In this document: positions 34,807-50,450 of the stretch, piece by piece
Layout of the letters: each line of letters opens with the position of its first letter
Numbering within the stretch: the first letter of the stretch is position 1
NCBI GenBank assembly: GCA_963762115.1
Contig: CAVXJH010000005.1
Coordinates: forward strand, 113,812-177,811
Direction of reading: 5' to 3'
DNA from: Candidatus Babeliales bacterium
GTDB lineage: Bacteria > Babelota > Babeliae > Babelales > JANWKD01
Length of the DNA stretch: 64,000 nucleotides
Translations under genes and position numbers: made by a program
Notes under the pieces: model-generated
Seen by the model: the letters and a program-made list of their open reading frames with translations, nothing else
Told to the model about the DNA's origin: nothing
Databases searched by the model: none

Positions 34807-34846
34807 GACTGGCCTGCCAGGCATTTCCTTCAGAAATGCCTGGCGT
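34807..34846. repeat. tRNA-CCA-linked palindrome plus att core TGGCGT
   Basis: GACTGGCCTG-CCAGGCATTTC-CTTCA-GAAATGCCTGG-CGT. Confidence 0.85.
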
Positions 34847-35032
34847 TACCTAGTAGAGACAGCCCTTAACCATGAGCTCGAATTTAGCACTGGTGTGCAA
34901 GTCATAAAAACCGTTTGTTCTAGCTTAAATATTGAAATTAATAAATAATAATTTGCTCTATTTTATTTTGCTTTTTTTGCCATCTCTTGCTAAAATATAC
35001 TAAAACTGGCATAATTTAAGTGAGTAGTATAT

Positions 35033-35395
35033 ATGAAACACAAACAACTAATTTGGATTGGTTCTAGCAAAAAAGACCTTAAAGATCTTCCTGATGAAGT
35101 TATAGACACTATGGGATATGGGCTCTACCTCGCACAGAAAGGTGAGCAGCATGAAAATGCTAAGGTGCTCAAAGGCTTTGGAAGCGCTGGGGTTCTTGAA
35201 ATAAAAGAATCTGATGCAGCTGGCACCTATCGAGCTGTTTACACAGTTACTATGCCTGAGGTAGTATTTGTATTACATGTATTTCAAAAAAAGTCTAAAG
35301 AAGGAATTAAAACACCGCAACAAGATATAAAACTTATAAAAAGTAGACTTAAATGTGCTCAAGAAATTTATAAAGAAAAATTTAAAAAGAAATAA
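35033..35395 (+). CDS. RelE/HigB-like toxin (Gp49/DUF891 type)
   Basis: WIGSSKKDL..LP, LKGFG.AGV.EI, TYRAVY, VLHVFQKKS. Confidence 0.88.
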   Translation: MKHKQLIWIGSSKKDLKDLPDEVIDTMGYGLYLAQKGEQHENAKVLKGFGSAGVLEIKESDAAGTYRAVYTVTMPEVVFVLHVFQKKSKEGIKTPQQDIKLIKSRLKCAQEIYKEKFKKK

Positions 35396-35400
35396 GTGTT

Positions 35401-35829
35401 ATGAAAAAGAATAATGATTATATCATAAGTTCAGGTAATGTATTTGCTGATCTTGGTCTTTCAAATCCAGAAGAAAGACTTGCAAAAGCAGAATTAGCAC
35501 GTCAAATTAATAACATTATTAAGCAAAAAAAACTTACTCAAGTTGCCGCAGCTGAACTGCTGGAAATAGATCAACCAAAAATATCTGCTCTAAGCACTGG
35601 AAGATTATCAGGCTTTTCTCTCGAAAGACTTTTTCGTTTTTTAAATATCTTGGGCCAAGATATTACCATTAAAGTTACGCCAAAAACACGAACAAAACAA
35701 AAAGCTGAAGTTAGAGTCAATGTTCCCAAAACAAAGAAACCTGTAATGATAAAACAACCTCAAGCTGAATCTTCAAGCGTTCGAGCTCTTCATGCAAAAA
35801 AAAAAATAAATAGTTCTCGCTATGGCTAA
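35401..35829 (+). CDS. XRE-type HTH antitoxin
   Basis: SSGNVFADLG, LTQ..AA.LL.IDQPKIS, FSLERL; follows the toxin. Confidence 0.88.
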   Translation: MKKNNDYIISSGNVFADLGLSNPEERLAKAELARQINNIIKQKKLTQVAAAELLEIDQPKISALSTGRLSGFSLERLFRFLNILGQDITIKVTPKTRTKQKAEVRVNVPKTKKPVMIKQPQAESSSVRALHAKKKINSSRYG

Positions 35830-36115
35830 AGAATTAAAAGAATTTAAACATTATTTTTCAGAAAAGCTCAAAGATCTTAGGTATGCAATTGCGTATCTTA
35901 ATGAAGCATTAGCAAATGAGGATAAGCGAGTTTTATTAGTAGCATTAACAAATGTTTGTGAAGCTCAAAAGGGAAATATAAAAACAAAAAGTTTCCAAAA
36001 ATATCTTGAAAAACGCTTGGATAAAGACGAGATTACCGAAATTGAAAGACAAGCACTGTTAGAAATTGATATTCTTCAATCTATGCAAAATTCAATATCA
36101 GACGCTATTGACTGA
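35822..36115 (+). CDS. Degenerate addiction-module antidote-like protein
   Basis: LKD..YAIAYLNEAL...LLVAL..V.EAQ.G; HTH part missing. Confidence 0.55.
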   Translation: MAKELKEFKHYFSEKLKDLRYAIAYLNEALANEDKRVLLVALTNVCEAQKGNIKTKSFQKYLEKRLDKDEITEIERQALLEIDILQSMQNSISDAID

Positions 36116-36232
36116 TTAACATTGGTTTTATCAAATTTAAATTTTAATGATTTTTTTGCATACTCATTTTTATTGAGTGAATAAGGGCAAACACCGGATC
36201 GCATACAATGGTTGGGCCATAATAAGTGTGCA

Positions 36233-36583
36233 TTAAGGGATTACTATAACCATAAATGATGGAAAATGCAGAGGGAAATGGGTATATAATGGAATATAGT
36301 AATGATGCAATTTTTTGGGTAAAAAAACTGCAATGATTCCTGAAACCGCAAAAAGACCTGCAGCAGTCAATCCTGAATATGGCAATTTACTTTCATAGGC
36401 AGTACATCCGGCAATGCTAAAACTAAGTGCTGTTGCTGCCAAGAGTATGTTGGTAATTTTTATGCTTAGCGTTGTTTCTTCTTCTGCAACTTGACAGTCA
36501 CTTTCATGAGCGAGCAAAGTATAATTCTGACCGCTAAAGCATAAAAATATAAAAATTAACATTCTTAATTTGAACGTTGTCAT
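36233..36583 (-). CDS. Small secreted membrane protein
   Basis: Signal peptide plus two TMs. Confidence 0.6.
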   Translation of the reverse strand: MTTFKLRMLIFIFLCFSGQNYTLLAHESDCQVAEEETTLSIKITNILLAATALSFSIAGCTAYESKLPYSGLTAAGLFAVSGIIAVFLPKKLHHYYIPLYTHFPLHFPSFMVIVIP

Positions 36584-36585
36584 AT

Positions 36586-37149
36586 TTAGTTACTTTCACT
36601 CGTATTGTGTTTTTTGAGAAATCGCTGAGCCTTCTCTTTATCTTTTTCAAAACCACTAATTTTGTTTACTGTATAAAAATAGCTTATATCTTCATTACTA
36701 TAATTTAACAATATTCCAATGAGATAATGATTTAAATCCTTTTGAGGATTACGAGCATATTTTCTTGCAAATATATGTTCATACTCCTCAAGCATTAATG
36801 CCTGTTCTTTGCCTTCAGAGGTATAAAGAATTAATGAGGCTTCTTCCGGCTTATTATTAAAATTAAGGCCATTTTTTACTTCAATACTATGTATTCCTAA
36901 ATTTTCGATAGGTAAAAATTCTTTTGCAATATATGAAAAATCTTTTTTAGTTCCCCAATATACTTTTTTATACCCAGCAATCATACATTTTATTCGACAA
37001 TTAACATTGTCATTACCACTCAAATCATCATGTACATTTCTTGCTGCCCCGCAACATTGTTCCGAAGGAATGAAATCTTTATGCCAAATATTTGAAGGAA
37101 AATAAGCAAAGACAGCTGAGCTTAAAATGAATAATAGAAATTTTATCAT
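36586..37149 (-). CDS. Secreted hypothetical protein
   Basis: Signal peptide; IG.LL.Y..EDI..FY motif. Confidence 0.65.
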   Translation of the reverse strand: MIKFLLFILSSAVFAYFPSNIWHKDFIPSEQCCGAARNVHDDLSGNDNVNCRIKCMIAGYKKVYWGTKKDFSYIAKEFLPIENLGIHSIEVKNGLNFNNKPEEASLILYTSEGKEQALMLEEYEHIFARKYARNPQKDLNHYLIGILLNYSNEDISYFYTVNKISGFEKDKEKAQRFLKKHNTSESN

Positions 37150-37406
37150 AAAGTTTATCTTATTTTTAATATGTTTTTTTATTTTAAAAGTAGCAATACT
37201 GATGCATTAAGTAAAGATCATTTAATTAAAACAAGGTCCTTTTATTCTTTTTTATTGCCAATATAGGCTCTTCAAATAAGCCAACCATGTTAAATTATTA
37301 CTGTTTTAACCTGTAAAGCTATAGGCATCTAGAACTTTTTTGATTTTCTGTTAAACTAATAAATGATTATTAATCATAAAAATAACAAATTAAATGAGGT
37401 TATAAC

Positions 37407-37808
37407 ATGGATTATCACAGATTTTTGGCTATATTAGCTGTCTTTTTCTTATTTCAGAATACTTTTCCGGGAAATGATGAAGTTTCACAAACTTCCTTCA
37501 ATACAAGATCAGAAAACCCTATACAAGCCCCCGGTCCTATTATGATCCCATTAAACAATAGTCTCCCATTTTATTCCGTCTCAATCGCTAAAAAATTGTA
37601 CAACGGTACTCCCTTAACTCAAGAAGAAAAAAGATTTCCCAAAATAGCATTAGGCCTTACTTGTGCTATAAACGCACTTTTTATACCTGCCTGTTTAAAA
37701 ATGCAAGGTCACCCCGTTTCTGTCGGTAATGTTGCTGCGTTAACTATTGTTGCATTGCCAATAACTTGGTTCTTTTCTGAATTTTTAAATTGTGAATGGG
37801 ATGATTAA
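37407..37808 (+). CDS. Small secreted membrane protein
   Basis: GAGG RBS, signal peptide, two C-terminal TMs. Confidence 0.65.
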   Translation: MDYHRFLAILAVFFLFQNTFPGNDEVSQTSFNTRSENPIQAPGPIMIPLNNSLPFYSVSIAKKLYNGTPLTQEEKRFPKIALGLTCAINALFIPACLKMQGHPVSVGNVAALTIVALPITWFFSEFLNCEWDD

Positions 37809-37863
37809 AAAATAAGAAATTTTAATAACACATTATTTCGGTCTAATACTACTGGGAGAGTTT

Positions 37864-38340
37864 CTTGCATTTATTTCCAAATCGCATATACTCTCCGATT
37901 GTAGCAATCAAAGCACTCTCTTCATCAAAAGGAACAATCATGTTCTTGTTCAACAGAACGCAGATTCTGTCTCTCACCTCACAAAATCAAATTACATCCA
38001 TCCTCATTACCTTTCGAATTTCCGAAACATATATCGGGCTCGATGAGCAGGAAAGCTGCTACACAGCTTAATTCCAATTAATTTGTTCCTACATTCAAGA
38101 ATGGTTTTATAAAACCATAAAACTAAAAAAAGAAATTAAGATATTTCTAAAATATCTTGAGGAGATTTATTTATATGAAGAATCCCCCTAGAGTAAATAT
38201 ATTGTTATCTGTTGATGATAAAAACGATTTACTGATTTTTTTGTGATACTTATCGCCGTCGATAGAAGAGTTAATGCAAAACCAAGAAATAAACCTAAAG
38301 CAAAGAAATAGGCTCGCAATCGCGGGCCTTGTTTCTTGTG
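37864..38340. repeat. Conserved block (copy 1) homologous to 45425-45930, including a frameshifted copy of the small basic ORF (from 38175)
   Basis: Colinear high similarity over ~470 bp. Confidence 0.9.
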
Positions 38341-38424
38341 AGCAATTGCGCTACCTTTGAATACATTCGAACATCGCCTGTTAACATATGCTTTACCATG
38401 TGTGCGTTATCATTCTGAGTGTGT

Positions 38425-39213
38425 TTAAGAATACTCTTGTTGAAAGCCCGCATTATGCTCGGCGATACTTTCTTTTAATTTATTAATCTCAGATTGTATG
38501 TATCCATTAAGTGTTCTAGATGAGCGAGGAGTCGTTTTAGCATATAAAGCATTAATTTGTTGTATATTTTTATTACGTAAAGCTTCTCTTATTCTTATAT
38601 CTTCATCACGACTGTTTTTTACAATCTGAATCATTTCTTCAGCCTGTGCACAAGATGCTTCCATTTTAACTCGTGTACTATCCATTGCTTTCATATACAG
38701 TCTTTTTTCTTCATTACCATCAACCCTTTTTGCTTTCATAAATACTTGAAGCCTCTTAATTTGTAAAAAGAATTTATCTTCCTCATCAAGATTTTGTAAT
38801 AAGAGTAATCTATGTTCTCTTTTTTTGGTTTTTAATAAAAAATCAATATCACGAATTATAAGTCGTCCTATAAAATTATTGGTAGTTTCATGTAATTCTG
38901 ACAAGTGAGAAAATCGTGCCGGTACTTTTGATATTTGTGTGAGGTAACAAAGTAATCCATATGTTGATTCCAAAGATAGCATAGACTCAGAGAATGAAGC
39001 TTGTGGATTTTTAAAAAATATATTTTGTTCATCTGAATGTAGCCCTCTGTTAAGTAATGCATCAGCAAAACAGTTTAGAAGATGCAAGTCTTCAAAAAAT
39101 TCTTTTTTATGCGAAGACTCTTCTCTTGAGGAATTTTCGAGTTGCTTTTCCATTGCAGCTATGGATGTTGAAATAAATAATATAAAAAAGAATGTTTTTT
39201 TGAATGTAAACAT
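38425..39213 (-). CDS. Secreted hypothetical protein (cargo)
   Basis: Signal peptide then AMEKQ; helical. Confidence 0.75.
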   Translation of the reverse strand: MFTFKKTFFFILFISTSIAAMEKQLENSSREESSHKKEFFEDLHLLNCFADALLNRGLHSDEQNIFFKNPQASFSESMLSLESTYGLLCYLTQISKVPARFSHLSELHETTNNFIGRLIIRDIDFLLKTKKREHRLLLLQNLDEEDKFFLQIKRLQVFMKAKRVDGNEEKRLYMKAMDSTRVKMEASCAQAEEMIQIVKNSRDEDIRIREALRNKNIQQINALYAKTTPRSSRTLNGYIQSEINKLKESIAEHNAGFQQEYS

Positions 39214-39464
39214 AAAAACCTTTCATGAAAAAATATTGCAGCAATAATGTAGGTCGAATATATCACAATTTTTTCTTTATGTTAGCATGCCGCTATTTTT
39301 TTTATTCGGTTCAAAAAATAAACATGATTCAAAGTTACTTATACCATATTTACGCATATTAAAAATAAGCTCGCAATCGCGGGCCTTGTTTTTTGTGATC
39401 AATTACACTACCTTTGGATACCTGAGAGCATCATATGTCAACGCATATTCACAGAATGCAACGA

Positions 39465-40583
39465 ATGATCGACACCATAGTTTTTACTTTAACCAAAGAC
39501 AAATTTCACATCATTCAGCCCGATAAATTCCAACCATCTGCAACACTTTTGTTATCGCAGTTTTCTCACACAATTCAAGCAAAACAGAACCCAACACAAA
39601 AAGAACTCCTGAAAGGGGAATGCAAAAAACCTCGCTTAACATTGCAAAAGCGCATTAACGCTCAAGGATTGTTTGATCTCATGCTGAAAGCTGAACTCTC
39701 TTTGCCAAAGCTTTTATTTGGCAATAATGTCGATGAGCTTTGCTATAAAGATTTTCCGGCAATCATCAAAAAATTAGTTGTTGTGTTGCAAGAAATGGGC
39801 ATTGAAACAACAGCAAAAGCTCTAGAGAATGCACCGCTCTCTAGCGTTCATTATGCAAAGAATATCCCCCTAACTGACGGCTCTACGCCCTATCATTTCA
39901 TCAACAAAATTAAAGAAGCAAATATCAAAATCTCTCTCGACACAAATCAAACTGATTATCGCAACGATGGCCACAGTTATAAATGGCACTGCAATTCATA
40001 TGAAATTGTTTTCTATGACAAGATTTTGGATCTTGAAAAGGCCAAGAAGAGCGGCAAAAGATCGATTGATAAAGAGAGTGGAATAAACCATTCGCTTTTC
40101 CCCTTTTTCAGGAAAAAAAAGAAATTTGAGATCCTTCGGATGGAAGTTCGATTAAACAAGCGACAGAAAATAAAACAGCTGTTTAAAACATTGGGAATAA
40201 AATCGGATTTGACGCTGAAGAAATTGTTCAAGCCTGCCATTGCAAAGAAAGTGTTGTTGCATTATTTGGATGAACTGGAATCAAAGCGACCTCTCATACT
40301 TGATTATAAATCAGATAATGAAACAGCATTGCTTGCTGATTTAGTTTTCTATAATCCTGAGTTAAGCCCAACGAAGATTTTGCAGCTGTTTGGATTAAAG
40401 CAAGCGCTCAATGTTATGAGCCCTAGGGAGTTAAGAATGTTGTTTGCAAAGTATAATCAAAGATCCTGGTATAAAATTATGGCTGATGCAAATAAAGTTA
40501 AGTTGCCGATTGTGCAACAACCTTTAGATGTTATTCGTAAACAATTGATTGTATTTAAATCCTTAAAATACTTAAATCTATAA
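39465..40583 (+). CDS. Replication initiator, phage/plasmid gpII/X (CRI)-like, copy 1
   Basis: MIDT, SLPKLLFGNN, FYDK, LRMEVRL; start chosen to match copy 2. Confidence 0.75.
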   Translation: MIDTIVFTLTKDKFHIIQPDKFQPSATLLLSQFSHTIQAKQNPTQKELLKGECKKPRLTLQKRINAQGLFDLMLKAELSLPKLLFGNNVDELCYKDFPAIIKKLVVVLQEMGIETTAKALENAPLSSVHYAKNIPLTDGSTPYHFINKIKEANIKISLDTNQTDYRNDGHSYKWHCNSYEIVFYDKILDLEKAKKSGKRSIDKESGINHSLFPFFRKKKKFEILRMEVRLNKRQKIKQLFKTLGIKSDLTLKKLFKPAIAKKVLLHYLDELESKRPLILDYKSDNETALLADLVFYNPELSPTKILQLFGLKQALNVMSPRELRMLFAKYNQRSWYKIMADANKVKLPIVQQPLDVIRKQLIVFKSLKYLNL

Positions 40584-41243
40584 CATTTCTCGTGGGTCAA
40601 GTTCTTTGTTCATCTGCTTTGACATTGCTTTTTTACATTCTTTTAATTGAGGCATGATAAAGCTTGCTCGATTAATTATATTCATTAATTGTTCATATGA
40701 ATAACTTGAGTATTGATCAGTATAAATCTCATTTTTTACTAATCGATATAAATCCATTTGGTGCTCACGTGCTTCATTCGCATATTTATCAACTTCAGAT
40801 GAGATAAATAAAGCAGATTCCTCATGATAATTGTGAAAAGAAGCAATATTATTTAACCCAAGGAAATTATCAGCATCGTCTATTCTTTCTAGACACATTC
40901 TAATCAAATTTCTTAAATCTTCTGCCGTGATTAGTGTATCGTTAGCTTGTTTCTCTATTATTTTTCTGTTTATAGTTTCAAAAATTATATAAAGTGATCC
41001 AGCTTCTCGCAGTAGTTGATAAAGTTTAGGATAAATTTCATATAAATTTTTAGTCCTAATCTGTAAATGCAAATAATTTCGTTGCATTTCAAACTTTATT
41101 TTTTCAGCTTCTTTATTAATTAAGATTACAGCCCTTTTATAAAGCAAATAATTACAAATAACTCCTGTAAATATAGCAAAGATTGCTCCATTTATTACTG
41201 GAGTTAATTGATAAGTTTCTATAAGTGAAAGAATATAATTCAT
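40578..41243 (-). CDS. Hypothetical protein with N-terminal TM
   Basis: 221-aa ORF. Confidence 0.7.
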   Translation of the reverse strand: MNYILSLIETYQLTPVINGAIFAIFTGVICNYLLYKRAVILINKEAEKIKFEMQRNYLHLQIRTKNLYEIYPKLYQLLREAGSLYIIFETINRKIIEKQANDTLITAEDLRNLIRMCLERIDDADNFLGLNNIASFHNYHEESALFISSEVDKYANEAREHQMDLYRLVKNEIYTDQYSSYSYEQLMNIINRASFIMPQLKECKKAMSKQMNKELDPREML

Positions 41244-41291
41244 TATTATATTTTCTGTTTGAGAATAATGGAAATGGTTTACTGCAGTTAA

Positions 41292-41699
41292 TCATGAAAT
41301 TAAACATCTATTTTCTGATTTATCAGTTTTTGGATCTTGTGGAGGGTGAATAAATCCTGTTTCAGCTATTTGTTGTGCAAAAATAATACCAATATAATCT
41401 TTTTTTATTATATTTTTTTCAGAATCAATAATATTCATCTTTGTTAAAGCAACTTCCACGTCTGGATCAAATTCAATTGAAGAACATTTATATTTCATAA
41501 TCAATTGCATCAAGAGGTCTGATTTTTTCTCAACAGGCCAATCTAAAATCTCAAAATCTTTATTAAAATTGGCAACAAAAACTTTAAAGTTTTCATTTGC
41601 ATGAACATCCTCAACAGTTTTTTTTGCTCGCTCCATGGCTAAACATTCTGTCAAACTTAAACTAAAGATTACAAAAAGCATCATTTTTTTTATAACCAT
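41292..41699 (-). CDS. Secreted hypothetical protein ending in a CaaX-like motif (CLIS)
   Basis: Signal peptide then AMER; C-terminus RCLIS*. Confidence 0.7.
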   Translation of the reverse strand: MVIKKMMLFVIFSLSLTECLAMERAKKTVEDVHANENFKVFVANFNKDFEILDWPVEKKSDLLMQLIMKYKCSSIEFDPDVEVALTKMNIIDSEKNIIKKDYIGIIFAQQIAETGFIHPPQDPKTDKSENRCLIS

Positions 41700-41843
41700 G
41701 AATTATTCCTTATAAGTACATTATGAATGAAATAGAATCATGCACAGCATACAAAAAAAATTAATATAAATCATCTACTATCCCTCCCCCTTTTCGTGAT
41801 ATGCTAGGCACGTTTTAACATAACCCACTAAGCAAGAGCAATC

Positions 41844-42005
41844 ATGAAAGCAATTTTAATCGCCCGTGTAAGCACAGAAGAACAAAAAGAAGCTGGCAAT
41901 TCACTCCCAGCACAAGTAGCTCGTCTGGAGAAATACTGCCAAGTCAAAGATTTTCCAATTATTAAAAGCTTTAGCTTTGATGAAAGCGGTTATAAAAACC
42001 TGTGA
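41844..42005 (+). pseudogene. 5' fragment (52 codons) of large serine recombinase
   Basis: Nearly identical to 48930-49086; identity ends abruptly at 42000. Confidence 0.92.
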
Positions 42006-42019: not shown

Positions 42020-42262
42020 TTACCAGAACCTTTTTTTAGTGAATGCTCTTCCAGAACCGGATTTAAGATATTTTTCAAATGCTACAGCCTGATCAAGATT
42101 ATTAAAAGTAATCGACGAAATAAGTTCCCATGGTCTGAATTGAGCAGTGTGAGCTGACCCGCCTGAATTATGAGTTTTAAGACGTTCTTGAAGATTGTCA
42201 GTATGGCCAATATAAGTTTGTTTGGAAAAATTTAGAGATCGCAAAAGATATACGTAATACAT
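42020..42262 (-). CDS. Small GIY-YIG nuclease (YhbQ/UPF0213-like)
   Basis: YVYLL, TYIGHT.NL.ERL..HN.G, RPW, FEKYLKSGSGR. Confidence 0.9.
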   Translation of the reverse strand: MYYVYLLRSLNFSKQTYIGHTDNLQERLKTHNSGGSAHTAQFRPWELISSITFNNLDQAVAFEKYLKSGSGRAFTKKRFW

Positions 42263-42281
42263 AAAACCTTTTTTGAAAAAA

Positions 42282-42416
42282 GGGCCGTGCCAGCCCGCCT
42301 CCGTTAAAACTTCGGCGCGCAGCTTTCGCCTTTGTTATTAATACTTCTTTATAAAATATAAATCATTTTAAAGAGAAGACTGGCCTGCCAGCTGAAGCCT
42401 TGGCGAAAGCTGGCGT
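42282..42416. repeat. REP-like palindromes, tRNA-CCA-linked hairpin and att core TGGCGT
   Basis: GCCCGCCTCCGTTAAAACTTCGGCGCGC; GACTGGCCTG-CCAGCT-GAAGCCTTGGCGAA-AGCTGG-CGT. Confidence 0.85.
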
Positions 42417-42532: not shown

Positions 42533-43915
42533 TTATTTTGCTTTTGAAAGTTCATTCTGTGCACTTGTGCTTGGTGGTAAAGATACTTTTTTAGTAGGAA
42601 TAGGAAATTTTGATAAATTATTTACAGAAGAACTTGTTGCCATAAGGATTTTGGCATTTATATTTAATACTTCTTTGCCATCACTTTTTTTATCGTAAGG
42701 CTTATCAGAATTAGATAAAGTTAATGCGGAAGAATTTTGTAATTGACAAAAGTAGGCAAACATTAAAGGATATGAATAAAAAACATTTTCTTGAAATCCA
42801 ATTTCATGGATTTTCCATACATGTGCATTATTAAGAATACTTTTTGAATCTGATTTTTCTTTTATATCTTCTAAAAAACTGCATGCTCGTAAAATATTTG
42901 CCTTTATTATCATTAACTTTATAGCCTTAAATAATTGTTTATTATAAGTGAATATTTGAAAGCTATTTTCAAATTTTAACTTATTTGGATAATCGGCTAC
43001 CACAAAGCCATAGTTATCTAAATTTTCTAAAGTTTTATTATCAAACAATTGTGATTTTGTCATTGGTTTTGCATCAAAGTCAGTATAAACAAAACATAAA
43101 TCTCTATTTTGTCGAGTAGATTCTTCAGCTATAATAACTCTTAATAGATCTGCACGAAAAAAAACCGGAATTTCAGAAGAAAAAATTTCAGGATTTTTCT
43201 TAACTCTGGTTAATGTTCTTATATCGTTTAGTTCTATTTTGGCTATTTTGCTCCCATGTGCTGCAACTTTTTGATTGATGAGAAGTTGAGTATTTTCAAT
43301 CATTTTATCGGCTGTAAAAGAACTATCAAACCACAAATTGATAGTTCCTTCGGGATTTTTTTTTGACCACATTATAATTGTATCCAAAAACTGTAATCCA
43401 AAATTATTTTTATTATTTGATGGGTATATATAAGTTTGATCAATAGTAGCTTGCCTATTGATCCACATTAAATTAATCGAATATTGTTTTGGATAATTTT
43501 TATGTTGGGTGAAAAAAAATTGTTTTATTTTTGATCCCAAAGAACAATTTTCTTTATGGTCGGAACAAGATTTTGATGAACCATTAGAGTGCTTGTTCGG
43601 TTGATCGGCGTAATATTCTTCTTTTAAATAAGCTCCTATGGAAGTTCCCAATATTATAGGCAACAGAAAGTTTCTTGATGAATAATCATTATTATCTTTT
43701 TCTTGGGATGCAAGAATTACAAGAGGTCGAGAAGAGCGCTTAGTAGAATATAATCTTGAGAGAAGCCTAGAATGAAAGAGATTATTAGTAATCTGCTTTG
43801 CATTGAACGGTGCTAATCGGTTGAATTGCCATATGCTGCTACGTTTATTCATCGCGAAGGCAGATTGATTTAATAAACAAAGTGATAACTTTATAATTAG
43901 TATTTTTTTTATCAT
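42533..43915 (-). CDS. Secreted DxD glycosyltransferase-like effector
   Basis: INLMWIN, W...NP...INLWFDS, FFRADLLR, VYTDFD; signal peptide. Confidence 0.7.
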   Translation of the reverse strand: MIKKILIIKLSLCLLNQSAFAMNKRSSIWQFNRLAPFNAKQITNNLFHSRLLSRLYSTKRSSRPLVILASQEKDNNDYSSRNFLLPIILGTSIGAYLKEEYYADQPNKHSNGSSKSCSDHKENCSLGSKIKQFFFTQHKNYPKQYSINLMWINRQATIDQTYIYPSNNKNNFGLQFLDTIIMWSKKNPEGTINLWFDSSFTADKMIENTQLLINQKVAAHGSKIAKIELNDIRTLTRVKKNPEIFSSEIPVFFRADLLRVIIAEESTRQNRDLCFVYTDFDAKPMTKSQLFDNKTLENLDNYGFVVADYPNKLKFENSFQIFTYNKQLFKAIKLMIIKANILRACSFLEDIKEKSDSKSILNNAHVWKIHEIGFQENVFYSYPLMFAYFCQLQNSSALTLSNSDKPYDKKSDGKEVLNINAKILMATSSSVNNLSKFPIPTKKVSLPPSTSAQNELSKAK

Positions 43916-43936
43916 AGTGATTAGTTTTAAATTAAG

Positions 43937-44266
43937 TTAAACCTTTTTAGATTTTGTTTTATTTACCGATGTCTTTTTAGGTGACAAAGAAATTTTAATT
44001 GAATAACCCAAAGCATCAGCAACCTGAGCTAATTTTCCAACAGATGTTGTGGTGTATCCACCCTTTTCTAACCGTGCAATAGCAGGTTGTTGAAGATGAA
44101 GGCGCTCAGCTAGTTCTGATTGAGAATAACGTGCTTTTTTTCTTGCCTTTATAAATTTTTCAAGTAATGCAAATTCTGGTTCCAATAAGTCATATGCTTT
44201 TTTCACTTCTTCATTTTGCAAAGCTCTTTTTTTGAATGCTTCAAAGCTTGGTCTTTTATTCTTCAT
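43937..44266 (-). CDS. HigA-like HTH antitoxin
   Basis: ARKKA..SQSELAERL..QQPAIARLEKG. Confidence 0.88.
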   Translation of the reverse strand: MKNKRPSFEAFKKRALQNEEVKKAYDLLEPEFALLEKFIKARKKARYSQSELAERLHLQQPAIARLEKGGYTTTSVGKLAQVADALGYSIKISLSPKKTSVNKTKSKKV

Positions 44267-44588
44267 TTTTTACCTCTTTCATACGACGTATTGCTATTTC
44301 CATTTCTCTTGGTGGAGTTTTTTGTGTTTTCTTTATAAATTCGCTCAGTACTATTACAATTTTCCCTTTTATAATACAAAAAGGAGCCCGAGCGATACCT
44401 TCAGGGCCTTTTACTCTAATCTCAAAAAGTCCTTTTTTTAATGGCTTAATATGCGGCATGCCTAATTCATCAGGGCCCATTTTTTCAATAAGTTCAGCTA
44501 TTTTTAAAAACTTAACCTTTAGATGTATCGGCCATTCATCAATACCCTTTTCAACCTTAGTACTATAAAACTCAACTTTCCAGCTCAT
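44256..44588 (-). CDS. HigB/RelE-like toxin (Gp49 type)
   Basis: Start MSWKVEFY; LGMPHIKPL..GLFEIR, FIKKTQKTP..E. Confidence 0.88.
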   Translation of the reverse strand: MSWKVEFYSTKVEKGIDEWPIHLKVKFLKIAELIEKMGPDELGMPHIKPLKKGLFEIRVKGPEGIARAPFCIIKGKIVIVLSEFIKKTQKTPPREMEIAIRRMKEVKNEE

Positions 44589-44732
44589 ATAAATCTCGCT
44601 TTTTTTAACAAAACACCTTATAATTATAACAAATATATTATATTTTCGCAATATAATTAGCAACAACTTAAGAAAGCCAGAAGCCGTAATATTAAGCAAA
44701 AATAATTTTGATAGAGTAAAGGAATAAACAAA

Positions 44733-45410
44733 ATGCTTCATGATATAGAGAAAAAAATAATAATTTTAAAAAATAGTTCCCCCAAATCAATACCAATGGC
44801 TATCTCTCCAAATATAGATCTTGCTAGAGCAACCGTATTAAGAGAATGTATTTTTAAAAAGATTGAAGAGCTAGCAGAGAGCATACATGAAATGTGTAGC
44901 AAGAATAGATTAGTATCTGCTATGTCCTTACAAAGGGCATTGATGGAAACCCAAGCATTATTTTGGGTATTCTTGAAAAAAATTGAAGAGGCAATCAAAA
45001 CAAATAAATTGGATGATTTTAAGAACTTTTTAACCAAAGCTTTATCTGGTGCGCGTTCAGATGTAGCGACTAAGAAATTTGGTAGGCCACAATCAAACAA
45101 TGCATTAACATATATTGATCAAGTGAATAAAATAATACCTGGTTATCGAGAATGTTACGATCTTCTTTCTGAATTTGTACATCCCAATTCTGCAGGTGTG
45201 CGTAATGTATATAATAAACTTGATTGGAATAATAGAGAAATTCATTTTGGTGATAATAGAGAAAAAATAAACATTGATTTTGTTATAAAGAATCTTGATA
45301 TTTCTCTTGATTGGTTTATTAGTGAATATAACCGATCTGCAGATTTACTTAACCAATATAGTGTTTTAAGCTTTACTAATTTTGATAATAATGAGAAACA
45401 ATTAAGATAG
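44733..45410 (+). CDS. Helical hypothetical protein, HEPN/DUF5677-like
   Basis: R.LME and Y..LSEFVHPN motifs. Confidence 0.55.
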   Translation: MLHDIEKKIIILKNSSPKSIPMAISPNIDLARATVLRECIFKKIEELAESIHEMCSKNRLVSAMSLQRALMETQALFWVFLKKIEEAIKTNKLDDFKNFLTKALSGARSDVATKKFGRPQSNNALTYIDQVNKIIPGYRECYDLLSEFVHPNSAGVRNVYNKLDWNNREIHFGDNREKINIDFVIKNLDISLDWFISEYNRSADLLNQYSVLSFTNFDNNEKQLR

Positions 45411-45424
45411 CTATATAAAACTTC

Positions 45425-45930
45425 CTTGCAAATATTTCCAAATCGTATAATATCTTCCTTTGTAGTAATCAAAGCACTCTCTTCATCAAAGGAACAATCA
45501 TGTTCTTGCTCAACAGAACTCAGATTCTGTACTCCAACTCACAAAATCAAATTCCATCCAGCCTCATTATCTTTCAAACATCTGAAACATATATCGGGCT
45601 CGATAAGCAAGAAAGCTGCTACACAGCTTAATTCCAATTAATTTGTTCCTAATTCCTAGAATGGTTTTTATAACCATAAAAATTAAAAAAAGAAATTAAG
45701 ATATTTCTAAAATATCTTGAGGAGATTTATTTATATGAAGAATCCCCCTAGAGTGAATATACTTTTGTCTATTGATGATAAAAAACGACTTACTGATTTT
45801 TTTGTAATACTTATCGCCGTTGATAGAAGAGTTAATGCAAAACCAAGAAATAAACCTAAAGCAAAGAAAAGCGCAAAAGCAAAAACTAAGCGCAAAGAAA
45901 TAGGCTCGCAATCGCGGGCCTTGTTTTTTA
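45425..45930. repeat. Conserved block (copy 2) upstream of rep
   Basis: Homologous to 37864-38340. Confidence 0.9.
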
Positions 45931-45977
45931 TAATCAATCGTATTACTCTTGAGTTTTTGAAAAGCCTTTTATTTTAG
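45735..45977 (+). CDS. Small basic protein upstream of rep
   Basis: GAGGAG RBS, MKNPPRVNILL, K/A-rich; homolog at 38175. Confidence 0.65.
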   Translation: MKNPPRVNILLSIDDKKRLTDFFVILIAVDRRVNAKPRNKPKAKKSAKAKTKRKEIGSQSRALFFIINRITLEFLKSLLF

Positions 45978-46003
45978 CAATGCTTTAAAGAACACAACAG
46001 CGA

Positions 46004-47122
46004 ATGATCGACACCATAGTTTTTACGTTAACCAAAGACAAGTTCAACATCATTCACCCCGATAAATTCCAGCCCTCTGCAACACTTTTGTTATCAACGC
46101 ATTCTCACACAATCCAAGCAAAACAAAACCCAACACGAAAAGAACTCCTGAAAGGGGAATGCAAGCCTCGTTTAACATTGCAAAAGCGCATTAACGCTCA
46201 AGGGTTATTTGATCTCATGTTAAAAGTTGAACTTTCTTTGCCAAAGCTTTTGTTTGGCAACAATGTTGATGAACTTTGTTATAAAGATTTTCCAGCGATC
46301 ATCAAAAAATTAGGTGCTGTGCTGCAGGAAATGGGTATTGGGACAACGGCAGAAGCCCTAGAGAATGCGCCGCTCTCTAGCGTTCATTATGCAAAGAATA
46401 TCCCTCTCACTGACGGCTCTACGCCCTATCATTTCATCAACAAAATCAAAGAAGCGAATATCAAAATCTCTCTAGATACCAATCAAACGGATTATCGCAA
46501 CGATGGCCACAGTTATAAATGGCATTGCAATTCATATGAAGTTGTTTTCTATGACAAGCTTCTGGATTTGGAAAAAGCAAAGAAGAGCAGCAAGAGATCA
46601 ATTGATAAAGATAGTGCAATGAACCATTCGCCCTTCCCCTTTTTGGAAAAAAAAAAGAAATTTGAGATCCTTCGCATGGAAGTTCGATTGAACAAACGAC
46701 AAAAAATTAAACAGTTATTTAAAACGCTGGGAATAAAATCAGATTTGACGTTGAAGAAGTTGTTTAAGCCTGCCATTGCAAAGAAAGTTCTTTTGCATTA
46801 TCTCGATGAGCTTGAATCAAAACGACCTTCATTGCTTGATTATAAATCAGATAATGAAACAGCATTGCTTGCTGATTTAGTTTTCTATAATCCTGAGTTA
46901 AGCCCAACGAAGATTTTGCAACTCTTTGGATTAAAGCAAGCGCTGAATAGTATGAGCCCTAGAGAGTTAAGAATGCTGTTTGCAAAATACAATCAAAGAG
47001 CCTGGTATAAATTGATGGCTGATGCAAACAAGGTAAAATTACCCAATTCACATCAGCCATTAGAAATTATTCGTCAGCAATTGATCATTTTTAAGCAATT
47101 CAAAATAACCAAGAATGTTTAA
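46004..47122 (+). CDS. Replication initiator, phage/plasmid gpII/X (CRI)-like, copy 2
   Basis: Same motifs as 39465; highly similar paralog. Confidence 0.75.
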   Translation: MIDTIVFTLTKDKFNIIHPDKFQPSATLLLSTHSHTIQAKQNPTRKELLKGECKPRLTLQKRINAQGLFDLMLKVELSLPKLLFGNNVDELCYKDFPAIIKKLGAVLQEMGIGTTAEALENAPLSSVHYAKNIPLTDGSTPYHFINKIKEANIKISLDTNQTDYRNDGHSYKWHCNSYEVVFYDKLLDLEKAKKSSKRSIDKDSAMNHSPFPFLEKKKKFEILRMEVRLNKRQKIKQLFKTLGIKSDLTLKKLFKPAIAKKVLLHYLDELESKRPSLLDYKSDNETALLADLVFYNPELSPTKILQLFGLKQALNSMSPRELRMLFAKYNQRAWYKLMADANKVKLPNSHQPLEIIRQQLIIFKQFKITKNV

Positions 47123-47128
47123 AATTTA

Positions 47129-48730
47129 TTATTTACGCACAACATTATAAACATATTTATTTTTATGATGAGGTCCTTGCTCAACCATGGGAGATTTGCC
47201 ATTTACATAAACAAACGTACTTGGTAAAGGCAAATCAGAATCCTTGTTCTGTTTAATAAATTCAACTTGTGCTCTGAAATCTTGGTTTATCTCGCAAAGA
47301 GCTTCCATTAGTTGCCGATTCAATTCCTCTATACTTGTATGCATATCATCAATATCTATATCTTTTTTGAGTTCAATCCAAAATTCAAGTTGTTGATCAA
47401 GTTTATCATTTTCAAATTTATTAAATGCATAACGATTTATTTTTTCATATAAACCAGGTACTTTTAAAAGAGCGCGTTCAAGATCATCATACATTAAATT
47501 AGCACCATTAAACGTTAATGCGTCATCACCACGACCATATAAACACAAGATAGGCAAACTGGTGCGTGGCGTTAACTCAAAACCATGTTTTTTAAGAAGA
47601 TCTTTAACAACACTGACTTTAAATACCTTACCTTTATCCCCAAGATCGTAACGAACTCTTGGTGACACGCGTGATTCATCAAGGTCAGTAAATAACAAGC
47701 TGCCATCTTCTGTTTCTTCGATATAATCAAGTAAAGGATTGAAATGGAAAAAAATTGGCGTACCATCGAGAGAACCTAAGAGCTCTTTTTTAAACTGAGG
47801 ATTTTCTTTGCACAATAATTGCAATTTTTGTTCAAATTCTGTTTGCTGTGCAATATTAATACGCAAATCACTAGCGCCATAAGAAGAATATACTTCTTTA
47901 ATACCGCTTTTTTTAATACTATTGTAGACATTCTCAGACATTGCTTCACCACCAACAACAATAGTAATATCATAATCACGCAAATCAAACGGTGCATTTT
48001 CTACAAATTTTTTCATGTGTGGTGGATATCCTGCAATCACATAACGTTGACCTGGACCAATATCTTTGAGCGCATCATATAACTTATCAATGTCAGGACC
48101 AATTGATAATATTAGTTGACTGCCTGTAAGCGCATATGTTGATGTCATACCCGTTGCCCATGTACCTAGTGCAAACATGTTGCAAAAGATATAGGGCTTA
48201 TCGCCTAATGCAGCTTTACTTGCTACACGAATCCATGCTTTAACATTTTCCATCTCTTGATGACCGCGTACCCATTTAGTAGGTTTTCCAGTTGTACCAG
48301 TAGAAGTATCAATTTGTCCTTGCAAAGGAAGTTTTCCAAATAATAGTGTTTGTTCAATAGTATATTTCTTAATATAATTTGATTTGCTCATCAGAGGAAC
48401 ATTTTCTAAAGAATCAGGCACTCCTGGGGGACAGTTGTTATCAACAAAATCTTTATAAGCAGGAACATTTCTATATGCCTTCAAAAATATTCTTCTCGCC
48501 TTCAATTGCGAAAGGAAAAATAACGTCTTTTCAGGGGCATGGGCGAACAGAGAAGGATAGCGCACTGAAACTGAAGAAAGTACACTCGATAATTTTCCAA
48601 TAGCAGTATCGCGAACTTGAAACAGCATATCTTGAACGTCGCAAGATTTATCAGAAGAACAAATACTGATATTTTCCATTGTAAGAAAAAGCAATGTGAT
48701 AATTATTTTCTTTGTTATAGATAGTTTCAT
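47129..48730 (-). CDS. Phenylacetate-CoA ligase-like (ANL superfamily) protein with signal-like leader
   Basis: AYRNVPAY, TSTGTTGKP, GGE, YGASD, RYDLGD.G, GR.DD. Confidence 0.85.
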   Translation of the reverse strand: MKLSITKKIIITLLFLTMENISICSSDKSCDVQDMLFQVRDTAIGKLSSVLSSVSVRYPSLFAHAPEKTLFFLSQLKARRIFLKAYRNVPAYKDFVDNNCPPGVPDSLENVPLMSKSNYIKKYTIEQTLLFGKLPLQGQIDTSTGTTGKPTKWVRGHQEMENVKAWIRVASKAALGDKPYIFCNMFALGTWATGMTSTYALTGSQLILSIGPDIDKLYDALKDIGPGQRYVIAGYPPHMKKFVENAPFDLRDYDITIVVGGEAMSENVYNSIKKSGIKEVYSSYGASDLRINIAQQTEFEQKLQLLCKENPQFKKELLGSLDGTPIFFHFNPLLDYIEETEDGSLLFTDLDESRVSPRVRYDLGDKGKVFKVSVVKDLLKKHGFELTPRTSLPILCLYGRGDDALTFNGANLMYDDLERALLKVPGLYEKINRYAFNKFENDKLDQQLEFWIELKKDIDIDDMHTSIEELNRQLMEALCEINQDFRAQVEFIKQNKDSDLPLPSTFVYVNGKSPMVEQGPHHKNKYVYNVVRK

Positions 48731-48929
48731 TCTTTTTTGCCTCTTGAAAATTTATATCTGAAATAATTTAAAAAATAAAATAACTAATTAATAATATTAT
48801 TATGAATGATATATAAAAAAAATCAATAATCGTCCTTATAGGACTCTATTTACAAACTATCTACCCTCTCTCCACCCTTCATGATAAGCTATAGAACATT
48901 TAAATAATACCATAACTATGAGTACTATC

Positions 48930-50384
48930 ATGAAAGCAATTTTAATCGCTCGTGTAAGCACAGAAGAACAAAAAGAAGCTGGCAATTCTCTTCCAGCACA
49001 AGTAGCTCGCCTAGAAAAATACTGCCAAGTCAAAGATTTTCCAATCATTAAAAGCTTTAGCTTTGATGAAAGTGGTTATAAAAACCAACGAGAAGCATTT
49101 GATGCAATTTTAGATTTCGTCCTAGAGCAAAAAGAAAAAGTAGCCGTATGCTGCGACAAAGTAGATCGCTTGTCGCGAAATATATTCGATAAACGAGTTT
49201 CCACGCTCTATGAAAAGGCATTGCAAGATCAACTAGAGTTACATTTTGTTTCTGATGGACAAGTTATTAACAGCCGCATTTCAGCCGTTGAAAAATTTCA
49301 ATTTGGGATCAGTTTAGGATTGGCAAAATATTATTCTGATGCCATAAGCGATAATGTTAAAAGAGCCATAGAGCAAAAATTGCGCAAAGGCGAATGGATT
49401 GCCAAAGCGCCCTATGGTTATAAAAATATCCTTCTAGGGGATAAAAAAGATATCTGTGTTGATGAGTATGCAAAGCACATTGTGCACAAAGCTTTTGAAT
49501 TATATGCAACGGGAGCTTTCTCTTTTGAGCTTTTATGCAAAAAAATGAAAGAAGATCATAACATTGTGTGGAGTGTGAGTTATATTGATAAAGTTTTTAA
49601 TAACCATTTTTATTATGGCGTTATGGTCATTAAAGGCCAACAGTATCCTCACAAATATCCACCCATTATTTCTCAAGCACTTTTTGAAAAGGTTCACCTC
49701 ATGAAAAAAAGCCTTAATAAAAAACAAAGTAGATATGCAGGAAAGCCTTATCAATATCGTGGGCTTTTGCGTTGTGATGATTGCGGATTTGCCATTACAC
49801 CAGAAAAGCACAAAGGGCATGTGTATTATCATTGCACAGAATTCAAAGGCAAACATGGCGCAAAATGGCTGCGAGAAGAAGCAATTACTGAACAATTAGG
49901 AGCTATTTTTAAAAGCTTACAAATGCCTGAAGATGTTTTAAAGCAGCTTTCTGAAACATTAACTGAAGTGCATGAAAACAAAGCTGCCTTTCAAGCAAAA
50001 CAATTTGATGCACTTACCAGGGAACAAAAAGAAGTCACGAAAATGATGGATAATTTATACCTTGATAAACTCAAAGGGAGAATTACTGAGAGTGCGTATG
50101 ACAGATTTTACCAAAAGTTCAGAGATCAAACCACCGATATTTCTATTAGATTAGAGCAATTACAAGAAGCAGAAGATAACTACTATATTACCGTGAAATA
50201 TCTGCTAGAGCTAACAACTCGAGCTTATGATTTATTTATGGGTTCGGAAGTGGAAGAAAAAAGGCAATTAATCAAACTTGTATTATCGAACTTGAGACTT
50301 AAGGGTGAAAACATCGTCTACGACGCGCATCAGCCCTTTGATTTGATACTAAAAAGTACTGATGAACAACTATGGCGTCCCTAA
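48930..50384 (+). CDS. Large serine recombinase (integrase); stop codon inside tRNA-Glu
   Basis: ARVSTEEQ, DRLSR, PYGY, Zn ribbon (CDDC..HC), coiled coil; ends EQLWRP*. Confidence 0.95.
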   Translation: MKAILIARVSTEEQKEAGNSLPAQVARLEKYCQVKDFPIIKSFSFDESGYKNQREAFDAILDFVLEQKEKVAVCCDKVDRLSRNIFDKRVSTLYEKALQDQLELHFVSDGQVINSRISAVEKFQFGISLGLAKYYSDAISDNVKRAIEQKLRKGEWIAKAPYGYKNILLGDKKDICVDEYAKHIVHKAFELYATGAFSFELLCKKMKEDHNIVWSVSYIDKVFNNHFYYGVMVIKGQQYPHKYPPIISQALFEKVHLMKKSLNKKQSRYAGKPYQYRGLLRCDDCGFAITPEKHKGHVYYHCTEFKGKHGAKWLREEAITEQLGAIFKSLQMPEDVLKQLSETLTEVHENKAAFQAKQFDALTREQKEVTKMMDNLYLDKLKGRITESAYDRFYQKFRDQTTDISIRLEQLQEAEDNYYITVKYLLELTTRAYDLFMGSEVEEKRQLIKLVLSNLRLKGENIVYDAHQPFDLILKSTDEQLWRP

Positions 50385-50450
50385 GGGGATTCGAACCCCT
50401 GTTTTCGCCGTGAAAGGGCGGTGTCCTGGACCAGGCTAGACGATAGGGAC
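50373..50450 (-). tRNA. tRNA-Glu(TTC), integration target
   Basis: Cloverleaf GTCCCTA..TTC..TAGGGAC-G-CCA. Confidence 0.95.

Follow-up and report, generated by a model that had tools for sequence, protein, structure and literature searches.

A large serine recombinase (LSR) gene split by its own attachment site already has a published precedent, DsiB of the Dehalococcoides ssrA islands. There, as at the locus described here, the 3' end of the serine integrase gene overlaps the att site at the 3' end of a stable RNA gene, and the islands form tandem arrays without transfer genes; DsiB was proposed to be fully functional only in the circular form or where its island is placed behind a neighbouring one (PMC3146451). 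Other features are shared with the Rep_trans/MOBT elements Tn916, ICEBs1, ICESt3 and the streptococcal IMEs, which combine an integrase, a Rep_trans-fold nickase, TA or otherwise variable cargo and accretion at tRNA ends (PMC5704250, PMC6499999), and with the TLC satellite and filamentous gpII (PF05144), TLC being small, integrated, equipped with a Cri/gpII-type initiator and devoid of morphogenesis genes (PMC3545932). Tycheposons likewise carry cargo, target tRNA genes, lack conjugation and accrete, their integrases clustering by target tRNA (bioRxiv 10.1101/2020.12.28.424599). Finally, the LSRs of SPbeta and A118/LI have the same domains as the one found here and a small partner, the recombination directionality factor (RDF), predicted at the junction of the DBD2 and coiled-coil (CC) domains; RDFs bind this junction, and C-terminal extensions may block it (PMC12286644).

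The window (the whole 64,000-nucleotide stretch analysed, from contig CAVXJH010000005.1 of a Candidatus Babeliales bacterium) contains a tRNA-Glu gene whose CCA end carries 15.5 kb of inserted DNA, consisting of two islands, A and B, in tandem (Table 1). In a relative genome the site is empty, with the equivalent of position 34840 joined to that of 50373 around a 6-bp core and the left flank directly abutting tRNA-Glu. In all 24 elements compared, the two junctions have 5-10 bp in common, starting with TGG, and these letters track the target tRNA. The integrating nature proposed in an earlier note on this DNA is borne out, integration being site-specific by the evidence of the empty site and these cores; short-core insertion with an empty attB is the mode of a large serine integrase. 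That note had extended the element to 50450, but its end lies at 50378, positions 50373-50450 being the host tRNA gene. An Rfam search matched tRNAs only. The reading preferred here, held with a probability of about 0.68, is that of a tandem pair of elements integrated at a tRNA 3' end, B intact and A grounded, with an LSR gene that its own attachment site divides in two and a gpII-like Rep that likely copies the excised circle by the rolling-circle mode.

Table 1. Features of islands A and B and their flanks (positions in the window).
Feature	Position	Strand	Evidence
Flank pre-dating insertion: broken GIY-YIG gene and GC hairpin; left attB arm	34520..34840	-	Pfam, tblastn
A, left junction: TGGCGT core (6 bp) with open orphan LSR tail of 35 codons	34841..34948	+	
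A: Gp49/RelE-type toxin, HTH_37 antitoxin, extra antitoxin-like ORF (weak match)	35033..36115	+	Pfam
A cargo: three small unknown ORFs, hydrophobic N-termini	36233-36583, 36586-37149, 37407-37808	-, -, +	signal-peptide rule
A: non-coding block, conserved solely within host family	37861..38174	+	
A: small basic ORF copy, frameshifted	38175..38330	+	
A cargo: gene 38425-39213 (-) between 70-nt direct repeats containing terminator-like hairpin	38306..39432	.	
A: Rep, intact, 372 aa	39465..40583	+	
A cargo: two unknown ORFs, 221 and 135 aa	40578..41699	-	
A: LSR stub, 52 codons	41844..41999	+	
GIY-YIG cassette (gene 42020-42262 and hairpins) in place of A's lost LSR; supplies left attB arm for B	42020..42410	-	
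B, left junction: TGGCGT core with open orphan LSR tail of 36 codons	42411..42521	+	
B cargo: GT-A fold glycosyltransferase, signal-like N-terminus; like Legionella SetA/Lgt1 and YeGT/PaTox; DxD invariant	42533..43915	-	
B: Gp49/RelE-type toxin and HTH antitoxin	43937..44588	-	Pfam
B cargo: DUF5677 protein	44733..45410	+	Pfam
B: non-coding block, host-family specific; candidate promoter/origin region	45422..45734	+	
B: small basic ORF, 80 aa; candidate RDF	45735..45977	+	
B: GC hairpin and T-run upstream of rep (terminator/attenuator-like)	45903..45930	+	
B: Rep, gpII/Rep_trans-fold initiator (D3, H128, E226, Y183, K185)	46004..47122	+	
B cargo: PaaK-like adenylate-forming ligase, signal-like N-terminus	47129..48730	-	
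B: LSR, 484 aa; last three codons and stop supplied by tRNA end	48930..50384	+	
Target tRNA-Glu(TTC), host gene; right junction core 50373-50378	50373..50450	-	

Island B spans 7,962 bp and is intact; its sibling A has lost its recombinase to the GIY-YIG cassette and its small ORF is frameshifted. The events probably began with insertion of A, followed by replacement of most of its LSR by the cassette and then by insertion of B, and exit of A is probably possible only together with B. No description of such a cassette was found in the literature searched, which mostly comprised papers outside subscription and main texts; the earlier note had passed over the cassette, as it had the split LSR tail and the candidate RDF.

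The backbone that had been proposed for the two siblings holds for the att arm (34807-34975 versus 42378-42545, 83% identity), the non-coding block with the small ORF (37861-38308 versus 45422-45869, 90%), rep (39363-40558 versus 45898-47094, 87%) and the 5' end of the LSR (41765-42008 versus 48851-49094, 84%), with A retaining only a stub of the latter. It does not hold for the TA pairs, which are cargo-like because they stand in opposite orientation and at different positions and share no DNA similarity. The islands have no cargo DNA in common, as had been noted. Rep occurs in about a quarter of the phylum genomes (64/261). Among 40 loci searched for the backbone, the small ORF was found in 37, a same-strand LSR downstream of rep in 33 and the LSR tail in 26, and the LSR ended at a tRNA CCA in 28 (Glu 10, Asp 10, Arg 7, Gln 1). 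Homologues of the TA pair appeared in 7/40 and the non-coding block in 3/40, all three from the host's family, and both were rejected as family backbone. The family core runs small ORF, hairpin, rep and, further downstream, LSR, and cargo occupies free slots both before and after rep. Ten further loci were picked at Rep or LSR matches; two lacked rep, and the other eight had the small ORF in seven, tails in only two (three of the eight having under 1.7 kb upstream) and the LSR in all, a count that is no test because of how the loci were picked. A description of this Rep-LSR family was likewise not found in that body of literature.

The LSR has Resolvase, Recombinase, Zn-ribbon and coiled-coil domains, with S10 invariant in 25/25 sequences. 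Its gene reads into the tRNA and then stops, and a conserved tail of about 35 codons lies in frame at the far end of the element. Since the gene crosses attP, integration strands this tail, and the C-terminus encoded by the integrated form is not that of the excised one. The alignment with the A118 integrase reaches only about residue 466 of 484, which puts the tail outside the canonical LSR fold. Tandem junctions hold natural fusions of LSR and tail, one of them an intact LSR of 522 aa; the tail codons are weakly constrained (4:4 to 7:9 synonymous to non-synonymous). Rep is not needed for integration, because LSR islands without it exist, namely one at tRNA-Glu in another genome and a tRNA-Gln LSR on a contig holding no rep homologue.

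The small basic ORF adjoins rep, running into the terminator hairpin. In structure prediction, its product formed a complex with the LSR that scored 0.79, against 0.02 for the best control, and was placed at the directionality-factor site, with at least 75% of the contacts agreeing between runs and a partner pLDDT of at least 63; the mark applied to such complexes was reached by 116/157 solved pairs and 2/215 mismatched pairs. The small protein is predicted to bind at the coiled-coil/DBD2 junction and is a candidate for the cognate RDF. In published virtual pulldowns, 4 of 11 calls were false positives (PMC12286644). It may be observed that the exposed LSR groove could dock any helix that fits. 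Homology between tail and small ORF was rejected for want of profile similarity (14/60 shuffles scored as high).

The earlier reading of Rep as gpII/CRI/Rep_trans-like is supported, and the structure search suggested as its check returned the expected TBP-like Rep_trans (PF02486) fold: RepDE (Z 9.3, rmsd 4.8, 235 residues aligned) and RepSTK1 (Z 8.3) ranked first and second among 48,161 chains, followed by TBP, and Foldseek ranked Rep_trans matches 1, 2 and 9 at modest E-values of at least 1.8e-3. PF05144 was matched by 13/102 distant homologues at E<=0.001 (11 above the gathering cut-off) and by 2/70 close ones, and no Pfam family matched the Reps of A and B themselves. Their profile was colinear with M13 gpII without significance (probability 1.3%), hhalign against individual RepD or gpII sequences was not significant, and a search of PDB sequences with the profile gave no match. 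The Rep_trans motifs (Y-x-K, R-x-E and motif I, R-x-D-x-A-x-D) were taken from PMC4797284 and mapped by spacing and profile alignment. Y183, K185 and E226 are invariant in 135/135 homologues and R224 is kept in 134, so that the Y-x-K catalytic tyrosine and the R-x-E motif are present. Instead of three carboxylates, the metal site has D3, E226 and a histidine as second ligand (position 128 is His in 128/135 homologues and Asp in the other 7), which makes it a variant site; the arginines of motifs I and III are absent. Y171 and Y164 were rejected as nucleophile because they vary. The two Reps differ by 77 synonymous and 36 non-synonymous codons and, judged from sequence, the gene is under purifying selection even in the grounded A.

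As to cargo, 6/9 non-TA ORFs of A and B pass a crude signal-peptide rule, distinct from SignalP (4-5/9 under two other versions), which agrees with the earlier description of mostly signal-peptide proteins. Enrichment was rejected, since by the same rule family cargo has 19-25% against 33-41% in the host genome, the sole background; secreted-looking cargo is, by this measure, typical of the host. The family load is mixed (defence, IS, metal-resistance, metabolic and ankyrin/WD40 genes), and the claim that host-interaction genes are shuttled was overstated. Cargo was probably drawn from the host gene pool, and effector-like genes would therefore ride as passengers without defining the family. 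The absence of capsid, packaging and conjugation genes was confirmed (24 ORFs against Pfam, 13 against PHROGs). The three small A ORFs had no Pfam or NCBIfam match, PADLOC gave one weak partial match among 8 cargo proteins, and the repeat-flanked gene of A sits between small ORF and rep. The glycosyltransferase matches SetA (Foldseek E 8e-7), having the GT-A fold and a DxD motif with D279 and D281 invariant (26/26), and also non-effector GT-A enzymes such as glycogenin (3e-5); it is effector-like by modelled fold and signal-like N-terminus, and delivery and host-protein modification are putative.

Circular forms of B, proposed earlier as a check, were not seen: the 50378-to-42411 attP joint was absent from three sequencing runs, in which low-depth contigs left depth uninformative on copy number. 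Each of the five candidate runs matched under half of the sequence words, and no RNA run was among those listed. Scans for attP-form patterns gave one metagenome contig, none and then nine genome matches, and no viral ones; three of the nine were chromosomal tandem remnants of Dependentiae type, two were LSRs of unrelated hosts without tail or Rep matches and four had no backbone match. Of seven attP-type junctions, six are chromosomal tandems and one, on a 2.5-kb contig, is ambiguous. These results are compatible with non-replicating islands in which the LSR alone confers mobility, Rep is a passenger or maintains rare excised copies, and the small ORF, adjoining rep as it does, regulates rep rather than the LSR. 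The Rep-less islands point the same way, as does the Rep tree, which groups by host lineage and not by target tRNA. Against this stand the purifying selection on an intact Rep even in A, the catalytic residues kept across 135 diverse homologues and the predicted placement of the small protein on the LSR, which together leave it unlikely.

It is improbable, too, that the elements are IMEs with a MOBT-like relaxase, mobilised after excision by a conjugative helper. Rep_trans proteins do serve as relaxases in ICEs and IMEs of Firmicutes, one being present in 45 of the 144 IMEs from streptococci (PMC5704250, PMC6499999), size, TA cargo and tandem accretion are consistent, and B and 33/40 loci have their own integration module. 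However, VirB4 (PF03135) was found in 0/261 phylum genomes, a search of limited sensitivity because the control was detected in only 1/14 genomes; no coupling protein was found in the host genome (one model, weak positive control), nor any conjugation family among 103 cargo proteins, and the Rep model begins with the catalytic strand, lacking the N-terminal HTH of MOBT relaxases. The satellite reading of the earlier note, with Rep making ssDNA for packaging by a filamentous or other ssDNA phage, could appeal to gpII/CRI as the closest sequence family of Rep and to TLC, which uses a Cri replicase and borrows fs2 (PMC3545932). It gained no support: the host genome, the one genome covered, gave no Zot/pI match, and no Rep relative was found in IMG/VR contigs or 50,697 phage records (nor, beyond phages, in plasmid records); element sizes range from 3.9 to 13.4 kb, and TLC integrates via XerCD instead of an LSR of its own at a tRNA, so that we give it little credence.

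Under the preferred reading of a split-LSR replicon, the short chromosomal LSR and the small basic protein at its predicted site would excise a circle of about 8 kb. Circularisation would restore the long LSR, whose tail would occupy the same site and favour integration. Rep would then nick through Tyr183 and its D/H/E metal site and likely drive rolling-circle copying, with output probably limited by the terminator before rep. As conjugation and capsid genes are lacking, circles likely move passively (ComEC uptake, ComEC being present, vesicles or transduction) between bacteria in the same protist host. A bolder version, possible though on balance doubtful, makes this a two-state switch: the 35-residue tail would fill the directionality-factor groove in cis on the circle, and once integration amputates it, the groove would become accessible to a very small helical RDF. 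Transcription of this RDF together with the His-variant gpII initiator would tie excision to rolling-circle replication. The outcome would be a transfer-gene-free replicon family moving effector-like and defence genes among intracellular protist parasites that gave no VirB4 match, and grounded by the GIY-YIG cassette as a second tRNA-end parasite.

Dependentiae are obligate parasites of protists, and we know of no genetic tools for the phylum. The locus provides a concrete means of gene turnover for this group, even if the "effector shuttle" is weaker than first proposed, and a compact integrase family that spares tRNA genes, has mapped att sites and comes with a candidate RDF. It also makes directly testable the DsiB idea of 2011, that losing the C-terminus when it integrates switches an LSR, and it is relevant to the proposal that the RDF site can be blocked by C-terminal extensions.

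The Dehalococcoides islands differ in their target, tmRNA with a repeat of 20 bp, where the present family uses four tRNAs and a core of 5-10 bp. Their module holds DsiA, ParB and Mom without replication genes (PMC3146451), whereas the present elements have a gpII-like Rep and a single small helical partner; the six-gene dsi module is absent from A and B, and the targets are tRNA-Glu/Asp/Arg/Gln, not ssrA. Among the tabulated IMEs, those targeting tRNAs use tyrosine integrases and the serine-type ones disrupt genes; these elements need a conjugative helper (PMC5704250, PMC6499999), and no such helper was found here. In the present family an LSR acts at the tRNA, and Rep is closer to gpII, with His as second metal ligand. 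TLC depends on XerCD/dif (PMC3545932), in contrast with the own LSR, variable cargo and undetected helper of the present elements. Of the tycheposons, 910/937 use tyrosine recombinases, accompanied by primase/helicase modules and att sites of about 40 nt, and the accessible part of the report mentions neither a rolling-circle Rep nor a split LSR (bioRxiv 10.1101/2020.12.28.424599). Relative to the LSR-RDF pairs of SPbeta and A118/LI (PMC12286644), the distinction lies in a gene that crosses attP, giving integrated and excised recombinases with different C-termini.

In a genome of the same family as the host (G108), the left flank runs straight into tRNA-Glu, position 34840 meeting 50373 at a single TGGCGT. 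This makes the entire stretch 34841-50372 an insertion at the CCA end of the tRNA, which was left intact. Two sibling islands lie there in tandem, A (from 34841) and B (42411-50378), and their self-comparison gave four common blocks (83-90%) and no common cargo, which bears out the earlier note's picture of one backbone carrying different genes. The TGGCGT core also opens B at 42411, which would give B a length of 7,962 bp on excision. That note had listed both rep and an LSR in each sibling, and the two islands differ in how far this holds, B being intact and A not: the large serine recombinase (LSR) of A ends after 52 codons, adjoining the stop codon of a GIY-YIG gene, and its small basic ORF, the gene upstream of rep, carries a one-base deletion. 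The Rep of A is intact, with 77 synonymous and 36 non-synonymous codon differences from that of B. A is a grounded sibling rather than a second complete element.

The host, a Dependentiae (Babelota) bacterium to judge from the names of its Rep homologues, has a genome of 1.53 Mb in seven contigs, and cultured members of that group are described as protist parasites in the part of the source used here (PMC6561590). To the left of A lies an older accreted island with rep and LSR-upstream fragments, whose gene content, between conserved flanks, is unlike that of G108. To the right, plastid-like DNA with raised GC and dispersed repeats extends up to the contig end (accD, cysA-like, ycf3-like, minD-like, petL, psbZ), beginning with a partial tRNA and truncating a strongly Arg/Lys/Gly-rich ORF with Cys repeats; it is likely a green-algal chloroplast chimera of the assembly.

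The Reps of the window matched no Pfam or PHROG family, and that of B none in NCBIfam. Their family is large, with one count of 1,380 proteins and another of 1,287 clusters at 50% identity, the homologues carrying the name Candidatus Babeliales apart from one Pacebacteria, and no relatives were found in phage, plasmid and viral-contig collections. The Rep_trans/Phage_CRI fold that had been anticipated was recovered with a model of pLDDT 87.7: among 48,161 chains RepDE came top (Z 9.3, rmsd 4.8, 235 aligned), followed by RepSTK1 (Z 8.3) and TBP. Foldseek also ranked RepDE first, though at E 1.8e-3, and Phage_CRI was matched by 13 of 102 distant homologues. Carr et al., in the section drawn on, place the nucleophile within R-x-Y-x-K and the metal among three carboxylates (PMC4797284). 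Y183, K185 and E226 are invariant in 135/135 diverse homologues and D3 is conserved in 121 of the 122 long enough to cover it, the middle metal ligand being His128 in 128 of the 135 and Asp in seven. The Rep profile is colinear with M13 gpII, Y183 falling on Y197, in an alignment that is not significant. We infer that Rep is an active nickase of the gpII type whose metal site is a His variant.

Rep is present in 64 of 261 phylum genomes, and LSR homologues (E<=1e-60) in 89, a more distant class of ~30-36% counted in. Among 40 Rep loci picked by match quality and contig size, 33 have a same-strand LSR downstream of Rep within 10.5 kb; rep and LSR, both named in the note's backbone, thus do recur together elsewhere. 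The LSR ends at a tRNA CCA in 28/40 (Glu 10, Asp 10, Arg 7, Gln 1), the complement of CCA being a Trp codon of the LSR, and in 24/24 elements compared 5-10 bp from TGG are common to the left and right junctions, with letters that track the target tRNA. Complete elements (24) measure 3.9-13.4 kb. In a tree of 23 LSR proteins these cluster by target tRNA (7 changes vs 11.6 shuffled, 0/200), whereas a quick tree of 23 Rep proteins shows no such clustering (11 vs 11.5, 93/200) and groups by host lineage; near-copies inflate clustering. With the LSR following the target and Rep the lineage, the two modules appear to reshuffle. In G110, another genome of the phylum, a Rep of 84% identity lies at tRNA-Arg, and an LSR of 95% identity stands at tRNA-Glu with no Rep beside it. 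A third LSR island of the host genome, apparently Rep-less, lies at tRNA-Gln and has an orphan tail of its own.

Such a tail, a C-terminal LSR piece left at the far end of the island on integration, starts in frame at the core of each left junction (36 codons in B, 35 in A). A profile iterated from 12 seeds placed tails upstream of rep in 26/40 loci; as only frames of 18-70 codons were accepted, their openness is no independent evidence. LSR end and tail are naturally fused at tandem elements (L050, L062, L063, L082, L087, L088) and also on a single short metagenome contig, the upstream LSR being a remnant in five of the six chromosomal cases and an intact 522-aa form in L050. The A118 integrase alignment reaches ~residue 466, so that the canonical domains fall within the short LSR, to which the tail is an extension. 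For the DsiB integrase, McMurdie et al. report the same att overlap and suggest that the enzyme is fully functional on the circle alone (PMC3146451). Two distant LSRs of a Planctomycete genome (L080, L084) fit an attP-type pattern and had no Rep or tail-profile match.

The small basic ORF, a candidate recombination directionality factor (RDF), was found in 37/40 loci, 13 of which seeded the profile, and in 7/8 further loci; its conserved part consists of a single amphipathic helix and, after it, a Lys-rich stretch. The predicted complex with LSR residues 262-484 scored 0.79 vs 0.02 for the best control, with at least 75% of contacts agreeing between runs and partner pLDDT of at least 63. Of solved pairs 116/157 attained the mark, and of mismatched pairs 2/215, rough figures as own alignments were used. 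The predicted interface (333-347, 418-451, 467-472) is the coiled-coil base, largely conserved and hydrophobic. According to the portion of PMC12286644 consulted, RDFs bind LSRs at that site, SCCmec recombinases have C-terminal extensions that may obstruct it, and 4/11 such predictions proved false. Because the predicted interface is the RDF site and extensions may block there, a model can be proposed in which the tail would occupy this site in cis on the circle, and the small protein would bind the LSR in trans on the chromosome. Homology between tail and small ORF was rejected. L036, L037 and L038 have the small ORF and rep in one reading frame, yielding 461-464-aa ORFs that read through the pre-rep hairpin, and lone copies of the small helical ORF occur outside the pre-rep position.

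This GC hairpin with T-run, at most 200 nt upstream of rep, is present in 31/44 copies, against 4-8 of 43-44 control windows and 20/44 on the opposite strand, and resembles a terminator or attenuator. Direct repeats round a cargo gene begin at it in three loci (A, L063, L064); recombination at a nick site would fit, and a nick-site or cassette mechanism is possible.

A small GIY-YIG gene has its 3' end against an LSR 5' stub (about 17, 25, 48, 52 or 57 codons) in five cases from four genomes, in most of which hairpins and a tRNA 3' end follow. In sequencing run X1 one contig matches from 42019 on with a different left neighbour. The pattern suggests that GIY-YIG is a second tRNA-end mobile cassette, deleting the recombinase and grounding the island; no description of it was found in the literature searched.

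Coordinates of features in the window and in related loci
Feature	Locus	Position	Remark
LSR stub / GIY-YIG	window	42000-42410	
LSR stub / GIY-YIG	G000:C5 (contig of the window)	10499-11113	
LSR stub / GIY-YIG	L064	9729-10441	
LSR stub / GIY-YIG	L056	8721-9330	
LSR stub / GIY-YIG	L075	11750-12015	GIY-YIG gene a remnant only
GIY-YIG gene and hairpins	window	42020-42410	between A and B
Hairpin-flanked cargo gene	window (A)	38306-39432	between small ORF and rep; direct repeats (35-70 nt over the three loci)
Hairpin-flanked cargo	L063	~7137-7949	same arrangement
Hairpin-flanked cargo	L064	~7138-7924	same arrangement
Lone small helical ORF	L050	17127-17300	
Lone small helical ORF	L064	2121-2267	
Lone small helical ORF	L067	12228-12422	
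Third LSR island	G000:C3 (host contig)	125859-135679	tRNA-Gln
Glycosyltransferase	window (B)	42533-43915	
Ntox17 protein	L061	12602-14419	
Ankyrin-IBR protein	L061	9188-10759	
Older accreted island	window	~24700-34800	
rep fragments	window	26043-26096; near 29900	
LSR-upstream fragment	window	28532-28607	
Arg/Lys/Gly-rich ORF	window	51681-52230 (-)	
Partial tRNA	window	52223-52281	
Plastid-like DNA	window	~52230-64000	

Secreted effectors had been proposed as cargo; signal-peptide-like proteins are frequent among it locally and not across the family. By a crude signal-peptide rule, 6/9 cargo ORFs of A and B other than toxin-antitoxin (TA) genes look secreted. One from B has a GT-A glycosyltransferase fold with an invariant DxD (nearest SetA, YeGT, PaTox and Lgt1, E 8e-7) and could be found in none of four related genomes; another is PaaK-like. 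Across the family one crude rule gave signal peptides to 24-31/124 cargo ORFs vs 399-494/1,201 host ORFs, and the excerpt of PMC6561590 gives 44% of CDS in C. destructans, which makes secreted cargo a matter of background rather than a hallmark. Pfam matches were obtained for 56 of the 103 cargo proteins scanned (of 115 listed, the 12 TA genes excluded), ranging over restriction-modification, PD-(D/E)XK, Fic, Schlafen, HEPN, IS transposases, copper oxidase and transporters, with five ankyrin proteins (one with IBR), one WD40 and one Ntox17. L061 combines the Ntox17 and ankyrin-IBR proteins in one element, the most effector-like cargo seen. None of the 103 matched capsid, terminase or conjugation families, which agrees with the reported lack of capsid, conjugation and packaging genes.

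VirB4 was detected in 0/261 genomes by a search that found its positive control in only 1/14, and the host genome yielded no coupling protein or Zot, and did yield ComEC. Three runs, offering low-depth contigs only, gave no circular form. The best guess is that passive routes carry the elements; in the source parts used, C. destructans buds putative vesicles (PMC6561590) and tycheposons move via vesicles (bioRxiv 10.1101/2020.12.28.424599).

No description of the Rep and LSR island family was found in the literature searched. What is added here is the empty site, the phylum counts, the module reshuffling, the GIY-YIG grounding pattern, an RDF candidate adjoining rep and put to complex prediction, and a test for effector enrichment that came out negative. 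Each part of the design has a precedent: DsiB for the split LSR, IMEs for the pairing of integrase and Rep_trans, TLC for a Cri replicase and tycheposons for tRNA-targeted shuttles.
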